Source: Escherichia coli (lineage in GTDB: Bacteria > Pseudomonadota > Gammaproteobacteria > Enterobacterales > Enterobacteriaceae). From it: a DNA stretch of 64,000 nt. The notes under the pieces were generated by a model, which did not search any database, was not told the DNA's origin, and saw nothing but the letters and a program-made list of their open reading frames with translations. The stretch lies in the NCBI RefSeq assembly GCF_044647545.1, contig NZ_CP172818.1. One strand, written 5' to 3'. Below, piece after piece: positions 5,205 through 44,917 of this stretch (the first letter of the stretch is position 1; each line of letters opens with the position of its first letter). The position numbers were made by a program, and so were the translations under genes.

Positions 5205-5495
5205 TAACACTTACTCTCATACTTATTTTTCCCCAAACCTTATCCCCACGACCAAACGACAAAAATAAACATCATATAGAAATTGATACCAGAAACCCCC
5301 CCATCTTTACACATAAACCACACCCACAAACGACGCAAGAAGACGATAAACCAAAAAAGAAAACCCCCCAAACGAAAAAAAAAAAAAGGAAAACCAAAAA
5401 AAAAAAAAAAAAAAAAAAAAAAAGAAAAAAAAAAGAAAAAAAAAAAAAAAAGAAAGGGAAAAAAATAAAAAAGAAAAAAAAAAAAAAAAAGATAG
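5205..5495. repeat. low-complexity A-rich tract (plus strand); core 5381-5490 is roughly 90% A with an uninterrupted A28 run at 5396-5423
   Basis: Direct inspection; 5205-5380 is already nearly G-free A/C-rich sequence that degrades progressively into poly(A); normal composition resumes abruptly at about 5491 (gatagcatgttcgctgac). Confidence 0.9.
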
Positions 5496-5567
5496 CATGT
5501 TCGCTGACAGCGGCGGCAAATAAAGATACCTAATGAATGCCATTTTATCGATTTCCGTAATTATCAT
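5496..5567 (-). other. probable original 5' end of dgcF (ATG at 5567-5565 overlapping yneG stop as ATGA), now out of frame with the GGDEF part
   Basis: ORF 5307..5567 begins MIITEIDKMAFIRYLYLPPLSANMLS then reads poly-Phe through the A/T tract; its ATG shares bases with the yneG TGA. Confidence 0.4.
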
Positions 5568-5923
5568 GGCTGATTCATCTGTATAACCAGCCAGTGATAG
5601 ATTACCGTCACAATATAACGTTGTTGCTCCTCACTTAACGCTTCCCCTTGAGGAATGTTATGCCACTTAGCCAGACAACCGCGACAACAGGTCGCGGTGG
5701 CGTGTTGAGCGATAAAAACCGGATGCCCGCGCATGGGGGTTTGCTTACCGTCGTTAGCCGGTAATGCCGGAGCAAGACGTTTAGCGACAAAATCCGCCGC
5801 ATGTTGTTCGATGACTGGCGCACCTTTCTCCAGACAATACTGACGCTCTTTCATGCCCAAACGAAAGCGAGAGCGAAATTTTGAACGGGATAAACGCGCG
5901 AAGAGTGGATCGAGAGACTGCAT
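5564..5923 (-). CDS. yneG: YneG, uncharacterised, 119 aa
   Basis: 119-aa ORF; start overlaps glsB stop by 1 bp (same operon). Confidence 0.85.
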   Translation of the reverse strand: MQSLDPLFARLSRSKFRSRFRLGMKERQYCLEKGAPVIEQHAADFVAKRLAPALPANDGKQTPMRGHPVFIAQHATATCCRGCLAKWHNIPQGEALSEEQQRYIVTVIYHWLVIQMNQP

Positions 5924-6849
5924 TAATAAACTGAACGCCCTAATTGTTTCGTCAATTGTTCAAGGACAGCAATGCCCGCAAGCGAGTTACCGGCATCATC
6001 CAGTTCCGGGCTCCAGACTGCGATGGCCATTTCATGCGGAACAATCGCCACAATACCGCCACCAACGCCAGATTTTGCCGGTAGTCCCACCCGCCAGGCA
6101 AACTCCCCCGCGTTCTGGTACATACCACTGGTCGCCATCAGCGCGTTAATTTGCCGCGCCTGCATTGGCGTCACCACAGGTTCATCAATATGAATAGCTT
6201 TACCCTGATTAGCCAGAAAGACAAACGTCCGGGCCAGCTCTACACAGCTCATTTTCAGAGCGCAGTAATGAAAGTAGTTTTGCAGAACGGTTGTCACATC
6301 ATGATGGAAATTGCCAAACGACTTCATCAGCCAGGCGATAGCCGCATTTCGCGCGGAGTGTTCAAATTCGGAACGCGCTACCACCGTATCGTAGGAAATA
6401 TCAGACACACCGCTTAAGCCGCGCACGACTTCCAGCATACGTTGCCGAGGAGCGCTTAATCGCCCTTGCAACATATCGCAGACCACCAGCGCACCGGCAT
6501 TAATAAACGGATTACGCGGAATACCCTGCTCCATTTCCAGTTGCACTAAAGAATTGAACGGTGATCCAGACGGATCTTTGCCGACGCGTTGCCAGATTTC
6601 CTCTTCGGAGTAATGACGCATGGCGACAACGAGACTCAGCACTTTGGAAATAGACTGAATGGAAAAACGTTCTTGCGCGTCTCCGGCCTGAAAAAGCTGT
6701 CCGTCAACGGTACAGATAGCAATCCCCAATCGGGAACCGTCTACCGTAGCCAGCGCCGGAATATAATCCGCGACTTTACCCTGACCAATGAGCGGCCGCA
6801 CTTGCCGCAAGATGTTTTCTAAAATTGCATTATCCATGGCGACTGCCAC
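5923..6849 (-). CDS. glsB: glutaminase 2, 308 aa
   Basis: 308-aa ORF with serine-dependent glutaminase family features (QSISKV motif); recognised. Confidence 0.9.
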
Positions 6850-6912
6850 TTTCTACTCCTGGACCGCAGGTCTGAAAAGACCTGCGAGTATATCAGAGCT
6901 GAATATATAGCG

Positions 6913-42848: not shown

Positions 42849-43037
42849 ATGGAAACGTTATTACCAAACGTTAATACGTCTGAAGGTTGTTTTGAAATTG
42901 GTGTCACTATCAGTAACCCTGTATTTACTGAAGATGCCATTAACAAGAGAAAACACGAACGGAAGCTATTAAATAAAATATGCATTCTTTCAATGTTGGC
43001 CCGTTTACGTCCGATACAAAAAGGATGCTGGCAATGA
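42849..43037 (+). CDS. dicB: cell-division inhibitor DicB, 62 aa
   Basis: METLLPNVNTSEGCFEIGVTISNPVFTEDAINKRK... Confidence 0.9.
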   Translation: METLLPNVNTSEGCFEIGVTISNPVFTEDAINKRKHERKLLNKICILSMLARLRPIQKGCWQ

Positions 43038-43225
43038 ATACAGCATTTGCACTTGTTCTGACAGTTTTTCTTGTTTCCGGAGAGCCAGTTGATATTGCAG
43101 TCAGTGTTCACAGGACAATGCAGGAGTGTGTGACTGCAGCAACCGAACAGAAAATTCCCGGTAACTGTTACCCGGTCGATAAAGTTATTCACCAGGATAA
43201 TAACGAAATCCCGGCAGGTCTTTAA
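43034..43225 (+). CDS. ydfD: YdfD, 63 aa small membrane (lysis-associated) protein
   Basis: MNTAFALVLTVFLVSGEPVDIAVSVHRTMQEC...; ATGA overlap with dicB stop. Confidence 0.8.
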   Translation: MNTAFALVLTVFLVSGEPVDIAVSVHRTMQECVTAATEQKIPGNCYPVDKVIHQDNNEIPAGL

Positions 43226-43317
43226 AACAGTTCCGTAATAAACATCCGATTTCATTCTTATATGCCAGCAATGGCAGGGATTTGTTCACCCTTAAATCTG
43301 TAATGAGGTAAAACAAA

Positions 43318-44256
43318 ATGAGTAAAGTCTTTATTTGCGCCGCCATTCCGGACGAACAGGCAATAAAGGAAGAAGGTGCCGTCGCTGTAGCCACTGCCAT
43401 TGAAGCCGGTGATGAACGTCGCGCCCGCGCAAAATTTCACTGGCAATTCCTGGAACATTATCCGGCTGCTCAGGACTGCGCTTATAAATTTCTTGTTTGC
43501 GAGGATAAACCCGGTATACCCCGCCCTGCCCTCGATTCCTGGGATGCTGAATATATGCAGGAAAACCGCTGGGATGAGGCGTCTGCTTCCTTTGTCCCGG
43601 TCGAGACTGAATCCGATCCGATGAACGTCACTTTTGACAACCTAGCCCCTGAAGTACAGAACGCTGTCATGGTTAAGTTCGACACATGTGAAAACATCAC
43701 TGTTGATATGGTGATTAGCGCACAGGAATTGTTGCAGGAAGACATGGCAACATTCGACGGCCATATCGTTGAAGCGTTGATGAAAATGCCAGAAGTTAAC
43801 GCTATGTATCCGGAGCTTAAGCTGCATGCCATCGGGTGGGTTAAGCATAAATGTAAGCCTGGTGCCAAATGGCCCGAAATTCAGGCAGAGATGCGCATCT
43901 GGAAAAAACGTCGCGAAGGTGAACGCAAGGAAGCCGGAAAATACACGTCTGTTGTTGATCTCGCCCGCGCCAGAGCCAATCAACAGCACACTGAAAATTC
44001 AACAGGAAAAATCAACCCGGTCATTGCTGCCATTCATCGCGAATACAAGCAGACATGGAAAACACTGGATGACGAACTGGCCTACGCTCTCTGGCCTGGT
44101 GATGTGGATGCCGGAAACATTGACGGCAGCATCCATCGCTGGGCAAAAAATGAAGTTATCGACAACGACCGCGAAGACTGGAAGCGTATCTCGGCATCAA
44201 TGCGCAAACAGCCTGATGCCCTTCGCTCACGACCGCCAGAATGCGCTGTTGCTTGA
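43318..44256 (+). CDS. ydfE: Qin prophage protein YdfE; last few codons read into the IS2-like remnant
   Basis: 312-aa ORF; from about 44233 the DNA is IS2 insD-like (cgccagaatgcgctgttgcttga...), so the C-terminus is insertion-derived. Confidence 0.75.
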   Translation: MSKVFICAAIPDEQAIKEEGAVAVATAIEAGDERRARAKFHWQFLEHYPAAQDCAYKFLVCEDKPGIPRPALDSWDAEYMQENRWDEASASFVPVETESDPMNVTFDNLAPEVQNAVMVKFDTCENITVDMVISAQELLQEDMATFDGHIVEALMKMPEVNAMYPELKLHAIGWVKHKCKPGAKWPEIQAEMRIWKKRREGERKEAGKYTSVVDLARARANQQHTENSTGKINPVIAAIHREYKQTWKTLDDELAYALWPGDVDAGNIDGSIHRWAKNEVIDNDREDWKRISASMRKQPDALRSRPPECAVA

Positions 44257-44917
44257 CCGAAAACCTCTGTACCGACATCAAAACGGGCACAAAATACAGG
44301 CAGAAAGTTACCGATGAAAGAAAGCAAATCAAGCGCAATGATACTCTGACGAGTACGAGAAAACTGCAGTGATAACGGCAACAGAGAATGAAAAAAACAA
44401 AAAACAAAAAAAAAAAAAAAAAAAAAAAAAAAAAAAAAACAAAAAAAAACGCCTGCGTGTCAGAGCGGTGGCGCTGAAAACTGCCCTGATTGTGAAGGCA
44501 CTGCACAGGGCGAATCACTACCAGACGGCATCAAATAGTGAAACAATACAGGACGATCATGCTGGGAGAAATGGAACGCCAACTTCGACACACGATTTTG
44601 CGCCGTCTCCAGTGGAGTGGCTGACGGATAATGGTTCATGCTACCGGGCTAATGAAACACGCCAGTTCGCCCGGATGTTGGAACTTGAACCGAAGAACAC
44701 GGCGGTGCGGAGTCCGGAGAGTAACGGAATAGCAGAAAGCTTCGTGAAAACAATAAAGCGAGACTACATCAGTATCATGCCCAAACCAGACGGGTTAATG
44801 GCAGCAAAGAACCTTGCAGAGGCGTTCGAGCATTATAACGAATGGCATCCGCATAGTGCGCTGGATTACGCTCGCCACGGGAATATCAGCGGCACCTGGC
44901 TTGATAAAGGCAATTAA
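44233..44917 (+). pseudogene. insD: IS2 transposase (InsD/OrfB) remnant, C-terminal portion, degraded and interrupted by a poly(A) tract
   Basis: Translation ...[63 protein letters not shown]...[12 protein letters not shown] matches IS2 InsD; upstream portion is increasingly divergent. Confidence 0.7.
44391..44449. repeat. poly(A) tract: 59 nt with only three non-A bases, including an uninterrupted A34 run (44406-44439)
   Basis: Direct inspection; lies inside the IS2-like remnant between sequences corresponding to ...gtgataacgg and cgcctgcgtgtc... Confidence 0.9.

Follow-up and report, generated by a model that had tools for sequence, protein, structure and literature searches.

Two poly(A)-ended tracts in an Escherichia coli genome record very probably reflect a technical artefact in DNA that K-12-type genomes lack

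When recognizable genes dissolve into poly(A) in an otherwise ordinary genome record, does the sequence record gene decay in the organism or a fault in the way it was made? We addressed this in a window of 64,000 nt (the whole stretch of DNA analysed) from the E. coli contig NZ_CP172818.1 of assembly GCF_044647545.1. The window is the lsrF-to-ynfM region with a Qin-like cryptic prophage, corresponding to K-12 coordinates from about 1.607 Mb. A preliminary description had proposed localized decay toward A at the 5′ end of dgcF, in a remnant of the insertion sequence IS2 and possibly at the edge of a ydeJ deletion, and had ascribed it to a technical process rather than to biology. We find two such tracts, at dgcF and around the IS2 remnant, and the technical attribution stands up well. 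Found in this record alone, the tracts have a signature and a strand polarity in common, and the rest of the window, where it could be compared (about 50 kb), is essentially identical to known genomes. They are very probably a technical artefact of some kind, and it is probable that this artefact arose during a reconstruction guided by a K-12-type template.

The chromosomal backbone of the window is closest to, and near-identical with, genomes of the sequence type 648 (ST648) type. As comparison genomes we used FDAARGOS_497 and IMT16316, both ST648-type, together with K-12, and 5,426 complete E. coli genomes were searched. Relative to FDAARGOS_497, there were no differences across positions 1–5159 (5,159 nt), one 2-nt loss as the sole difference across 5491–27548 (22,058 nt) and two single-base differences across 30595–33739. 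Relative to IMT16316, 36751–38415 and 42419–44084 were free of differences, and 45043–64000 (about 18,900 nt) contained one mismatch, as did the part from 47589 to 64000 (16,412 nt). Over well-matched stretches the window diverged from K-12 by 1.7–2.6%, with a natural spectrum: transitions outnumbered transversions by about 2:1, and about 257 changes from another base to A stood against 229 from A to another base. The sole homopolymer-length difference within well-matched sequence was an A9 run at 31838–31846, which is A8 in both FDAARGOS_497 and IMT16316.

A homopolymer-length scan of the window bore out the two principal sites of the preliminary description. Runs longer than 9 nt occurred in two places only, 5375–5490 and 44406–44449, so that long A runs are found solely at dgcF and IS2. 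Given an expectation of about 1e-11 for a 28-A run by chance in 64 kb at 27% A, both sites are real and far above chance.

The dgcF site (tract 1) consists of two parts:

5158–5372, plus strand: decaying part of tract 1, delimited by alignment to FDAARGOS_497, a table of base retention in the longest common subsequence and the K-12 boundaries
5373–5490, plus strand: terminal A/G junk of tract 1, 118 nt, with runs A13, A28, A10, A16 and A17

Together these 333 nt (5158–5490) stand in place of a 498-nt dgcF segment that is intact at 4067312–4067809 of FDAARGOS_497. The tract had been noticed at 5205–5495; the site is as described, and its true extent is 5158–5490. K-12 is without positions 5159–5656 of the FDAARGOS_497 locus, the same 498 nt, and the edges of tract 1 agree with this gap within 2 nt. 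Because the segment is absent from K-12, dgcF measures 948 nt there and 1,419 nt elsewhere. The K-12-type deletion junction (K-12 1611891–2) was present in about 13 of 60 evenly spaced records, including records from flies, pork and pigs; in E. coli the 498-nt 5′ segment of dgcF is commonly polymorphic for presence or absence. Errors in the window begin with the third base of the segment and extend to its final base, and flawless sequence restarts abruptly at 5491 (GATAGCATG), where the sequence shared with K-12-type genomes begins.

The damage within tract 1 had been read as increasingly A-biased substitution, which is not its main character. Compared with FDAARGOS_497, the first 145 nt contain 29 deletions, 21 of them of G, and 1 substitution. 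The decaying part corresponds to about 280 nt from the start of the segment, copied with progressive thinning, and its homology extends to about 5372. Up to that point A is retained at about 99% and G at about 30% from the very start; retention of T drops from 100% to 0, and afterwards that of C falls from about 95% to 0. Of 328 bases in the tract, 296 can be placed in a subsequence shared with the reference (246 ± 2.4 in locally shuffled controls), and the bases outside it are A in 32 of 32 cases. Tract 1 is mainly base-selective dropout, not substitution toward A. The last 118 nt, made of A and a few G, showed no significant register with the reference, as 237–303 of 500 shuffles equalled it. 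We had considered that every A of the full 498-nt segment was kept in register to the end of the tract and dropped this idea after the shuffle test of the tail; we accordingly claim no homology beyond about 5372.

The second site (tract 2) lies in the prophage, within an IS2 remnant that is preceded by an exonuclease sequence and followed by the 5′ end of an integrase gene:

44085–44240, plus strand: exonuclease (ydfE-type) sequence, 156 nt beyond the K-12 IS2E point, with one extra C at 44228
44234–44390, plus strand: left flank of the IS2 remnant, with 12 changes to A, 11 inserted A and 0 changes from A, denser toward the core
44391–44452, plus strand: poly(A) core of 62 nt, with an A34 run (44406–44439) and shorter runs including A9
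44453–44937, plus strand: right flank of the IS2 remnant, with 22 changes to A, 0 changes from A and 10 inserted A
44938–45052, plus strand: 5′ end of the integrase gene, absent from K-12, with a miniature decay; K-12 homology resumes at 45053

We measured the remnant against K-12 IS2E, which is 100% identical to a full IS2 copy. Summed over both flanks, 34 changes to A compare with 0 from A. Among the IS2 bases A was kept at 157 of 160 positions, and G was the base most often lost. The tract contains 29 insertions, and 24 of its 49 substitutions are transversions. IS2 coordinates are contiguous on both sides of the poly(A) core, which makes the core a net insertion. The extra bases are mostly A, and their number per 30 nt (1, 5, 5, 7, 10, 25, 30, 13, 7, 7, 3, 7, 3, 0) ramps on both sides, so the decay is symmetric about the core. 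In the right flank the A-ward noise is gone by about 44600, 44601–44860 is nearly clean (6 changes, 5 of them to A), and the noise returns toward the end of IS2, from 44861 to 45052. The A-ward noise first noticed at about 44300–44450 is thus real, although it reaches further, covering 44234–44600 plus 44861–45052.

A miniature of the same decay lies in the integrase 5′ end at 44988–45042. Here G deletions (44988 and 44991) are followed by T deletions (45009 and 45027–8) and then by C-to-A changes (45030, 45032 and 45042). The order of loss, G, T, C, is that of tract 1, and the sequence is exact again from 45043. No top hit contained the integrase decay.

The layout of the region from exonuclease through IS2 to integrase (44085–45052) resembles the ydfE′–IS2E–intQ′ arrangement of K-12, with flanks that exceed those of K-12 by 156 nt and about 115 nt and an IS2 remnant that is shorter, by about 77 nt at the left. 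Neither layout can be derived from the other by a simple deletion. None of the 5,426 complete genomes carried the arrangement of the window. Two candidates for natural carriers, GPEC1035 and HCP5S3_I2, were set aside, as their IS2 sits elsewhere in the prophage.

The suspected third site, the ydeJ edge at 18320–18340, turned out to be of a different kind:

18335–18336, plus strand: junction of a natural 477-nt ydeJ deletion, with two junction bases, TA, absent

In FDAARGOS_497 the deletion of 477 nt relative to K-12 occurs together with the A7 run, at 99.7% identity; at least 80% of a 701-nt ydeJ-edge query is covered in 4,326 genomes. The edge is a natural, widespread deletion common to thousands of genomes and shows no A-decay. 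At the junction itself, the closest genomes have GTAATTTT and the window has GATTTT; the lost TA has no K-12 counterpart.

To locate the remaining differences, we sorted window positions by the presence of alignable K-12 sequence and counted differences from the ST648 references, leaving the unalignable core of tract 1 out of the counts. Their distribution was strongly uneven, in keeping with the technical process that had been suspected: 50 differences fell in 1,672 nt without K-12 homology and 14 in 35,386 nt with it, an enrichment in K-12-absent DNA with an odds ratio of 78 (p about 1e-54, for events that are not independent). Nearly all of the 14 lie at junctions (5490, 18336, 30597 and 44905–44932), with the homopolymer at 31838 in addition. 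The preliminary description had extended its distrust to every variant call in the window, which is broader than warranted, since differences are confined to K-12-absent DNA or its junctions. An insertion of 24 nt relative to K-12 (30703–30726) is free of errors; because it was reproduced exactly, the trouble concerns only K-12-absent stretches longer than about 100 nt.

What the tracts have in common goes beyond their location. Both retain about 99% of A and lose G most often, and every decay proceeds 5′ to 3′ along the deposited plus strand, with dgcF encoded on the minus strand and the IS2 insD gene on the plus strand. Neither tract was present in any of the complete genomes searched. All 5,421 records that matched across tract 1 aligned only with gaps, at 98.9% or less, and no record covered tract 2 colinearly. 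A 57-nt string from tract 1 had no exact match in GTDB representative genomes, IMG/VR or JGI metagenomes. Around the tracts we found no target-site duplications, inverted repeats or repeat pair.

How might one process leave most of the window exact and ruin these few stretches? The analysis shows the anatomy of the tracts, their uniqueness, their confinement and the match between their boundaries and K-12-type junctions; from these we infer the use of a template and the software or chemistry involved. The strain has an ST648-type backbone, and DNA shared with a K-12-type genome is essentially perfect in the record. In K-12-absent DNA longer than about 100 nt, the output on the deposited strand degrades from its left end onward: calls of G vanish first, then T, then C, with A always kept, extra A added and poly(A) at the end. 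It becomes perfect again as soon as a base can once more be aligned to the K-12-type structure. Such behaviour would most likely stem from an assembly, consensus or gap-filling step guided by a K-12-type template, in which insertions relative to the template would be rebuilt from weak, left-anchored read evidence with A as the fall-back call. The coincidence of tract boundaries with K-12-type junctions argues that the step depended on a K-12-type genome structure. The ydeJ junction, which retains only K-12-alignable bases, is consistent with the use of a template. Moreover, the spectra of tract 1 (32 of 32 extra bases are A) and tract 2 (34 changes to A and 0 from A) are unlike the symmetric natural divergence elsewhere in the window.

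Several observations weigh against this explanation. One concerns a module of the prophage:

40876–42418, plus strand: immunity module without a K-12 counterpart, compared with IMT16316

This 1.5-kb module has no K-12 homologue and is nevertheless 99.7% identical to IMT16316, a recovery that a crude template-only pipeline would not manage. Its differences from IMT16316 include single-base losses of A, G and G at 40991, 41015 and 42257 and a cluster of 7 changes at 42361–42402, just ahead of the return of K-12 homology at 42419; these may be errors or natural differences. A simulation of left-justified insertion stacking with majority voting, run at four settings of error and depth, gave blurred four-base runs and no shortening, in contrast to the clean, base-selective dropout of the tracts, and so lends no support to that particular mechanism. 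The K-12-type dgcF deletion is common in nature, wild strains included, and the K-12-identical segments 33740–35500 and 38416–40483 are equally identical in many wild strains, the cspB–cspF module among them. The template may therefore be any K-12-type genome, and the prophage layout may be natural. Two further features do not discriminate: K-12 IS2E has no private single-nucleotide polymorphisms, and alleles that switch sharply at the borders of modules are equally expected from natural lambdoid mosaicism. Finally, tract 2 is a symmetric net insertion and tract 1 a one-sided net loss, and no single simple algorithm can be named for both. No specific precedent for such an artefact turned up in a search of the literature.

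An artefact might also arise de novo, without any reference, if mixed strains or a heterogeneous population had been assembled and half-supported, degraded DNA between indel edges had been supplied by bubble consensus or by gap filling from one or a few raw reads. Bubbles are expected at the edges of common polymorphisms, to which the dgcF indel of 498 nt and the prophage modules both belong; IS2 is a repeat of the type at which assemblies break, and indel-dominated errors are like those of single-pass long-read or flow-based data. The prophage is also a patchwork, with modules identical to different genomes, two segments matched at no more than 95–96% and a mosaic at 36380–36700 that accompanies a truncated ydfU; however, lambdoid prophage mosaicism explains such a patchwork naturally. 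As the backbone is free of mixed alleles (100% ST648-type over tens of kilobases) and a left-to-right gradient into poly(A) is not an obvious product of bubble consensus, we regard an origin in mixed strains as unlikely. Sequence generation, infilling or deliberate synthetic corruption, for example by a neural model collapsing into poly(A), would account for error compounding from left to right that is reset at a known anchor, which resembles autoregressive decoding, and for the absence of the tracts from every collection searched. For DNA foundation models, besides, poly(A) has been described as an attractor that is degenerate and of low entropy (PMC13308446). Yet about 50 kb of exact, strain-specific ST648 alleles is beyond generation and argues against wholesale generation, the 498-nt segment is found in most E. 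coli genomes and should be known to a broadly trained model, and the K-12-type boundary points to a single template. To our knowledge, moreover, clean G-specific deletion is not a failure mode of language models, and generation of the tracts appears quite unlikely.

A further reading is that the lesions formed in vivo and destroyed the dgcF 5′ end and part of IS2, whether through A-rich error-prone or template-independent synthesis at break sites, deaminase hypermutation or insertion of reverse-transcribed polyadenylated RNA. Both tracts do lie on the same strand, and the A/G-rich tail of tract 1 is superficially like heteropolymeric PNPase tails. Against this, changes of G to A are accompanied by many transversions and indels; target-site duplications and inverted repeats are absent; the tract boundaries coincide with an unrelated indel of the population; and an intermediate form was found in none of the 5,426 genomes. 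No bacterial process is known to us in which G, T and C are deleted in turn along a gradient, every A is spared, only A is added and the sequence is reset at a boundary set by the structure of another genome. Real lesions of this sort are very improbable, and we give hardly any credence to a natural isolate in which strand-specific copying at indel-prone sites skipped G, then T, then C and added untemplated A. Reconstruction guided by a K-12-type template remains the explanation that we favour.

Two individual variant calls had been placed in doubt together with the tracts. One is a frameshift in tfaQ:

27618, plus strand: single G missing after a T9 run, giving the tfaQ frameshift, in comparison with a best match of about 95%

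Doubt was justified here. The lost G sits 70 nt inside a segment that matches the complete genomes at about 95% at best, so that no close reference segment exists; the frameshift is suspect, should not be trusted and fits the G-dropout mode. The other call comprises the substitutions in marR (12718–13152), where A53E, G103S and Y137H distinguish the product from that of K-12. Here the doubt can be lifted: the gene is nucleotide-identical to that of FDAARGOS_497, which identifies the MarR substitutions as lineage alleles, and judged by this sequence identity they are trustworthy.

Two segments of the prophage, 27549–30594 (tfaQ–stfQ–nohA–ydfO) and 35480–36760 (ydfT–ydfU), had best matches of about 95–96% in the complete genomes, 95.8% at most for the latter. 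Their substitution spectrum looks natural, and the flanking modules are 100% identical to known genomes. Within 36380–36700, K-12-type, ST648-type and novel alleles alternate every few bases. Coinciding with this mosaic, ydfU is truncated, its open reading frame (36565–37470) encoding 301 amino acids compared with 349 in K-12. A natural pseudogene, or paralogous prophage genes joined in a chimeric consensus, may account for the mosaic.

The outcome concerns data quality, not biology, and marks which parts of the window deserve trust. Gene decay is not the right reading of the apparently lost 5′ end of dgcF, the odd remnant of IS2, the damage to the 5′ end of the integrase gene or, probably, the tfaQ frameshift. 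As a rule for this record, stretches longer than about 100 nt without a K-12-type counterpart are to be distrusted. The signature of G, T and C dropout with A kept and poly(A) fill could serve to screen records from the same source.

How do the tracts compare with known systems? Biological processes related to A (retroelements, deaminases and retroposed tails) share with them only an A-skewed composition. Diversity-generating retroelements change A to other bases; here A positions are conserved at about 99% and no template/variable repeat pair is present, and we rejected such adenine-targeted mutagenesis. Deaminase hypermutation yields G-to-A or C-to-T transitions without indels and is ruled out by the deletions of tract 1 and by the transversions and insertions of tract 2. 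Retroposed poly(A) tails have sharp starts and target-site duplications; this candidate was likewise discarded, the tracts having no flanking direct repeats and a gradual decay, with the core of tract 2 inside contiguous IS2 coordinates.

Low-signal read tails from base callers offer a second comparison. Four-channel chemistries produce poly(A) calls after loss of signal, and single-molecule and flow-based methods produce deletions by missed pulses or under-calling. The ordered, base-specific dropout, as though signal channels sank below threshold in turn, the dominance of indels, the change from A8 to A9 at 31838 and the pure-A tail are all of this type. However, a raw tail should not survive consensus unless coverage is about one read, and a single decaying read does not account for tract 2, which is symmetric, with A bias on both sides on the same strand. 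Generative DNA language models, for which poly(A) has been described as a low-entropy attractor (PMC13308446), share the low-entropy collapse into A and the compounding of errors along the direction of emission. They differ in that the surrounding 50 kb is exact and that the boundary follows the structure of one genome rather than knowledge of the population.

For reference-guided consensus or polishing, the points of difference are that the non-template module of 1.5 kb is mostly correct and that the stacking simulation failed, and we know of no documented tool that gives a dropout gradient of G, T and C ending in poly(A). The likeness lies in the overall behaviour of the record. Sequence is perfect where the template aligns, small indels are right, the large ydeJ deletion is reproduced minus two junction bases that the template does not have, and long insertions are wrong until the output is reset at the next anchor.

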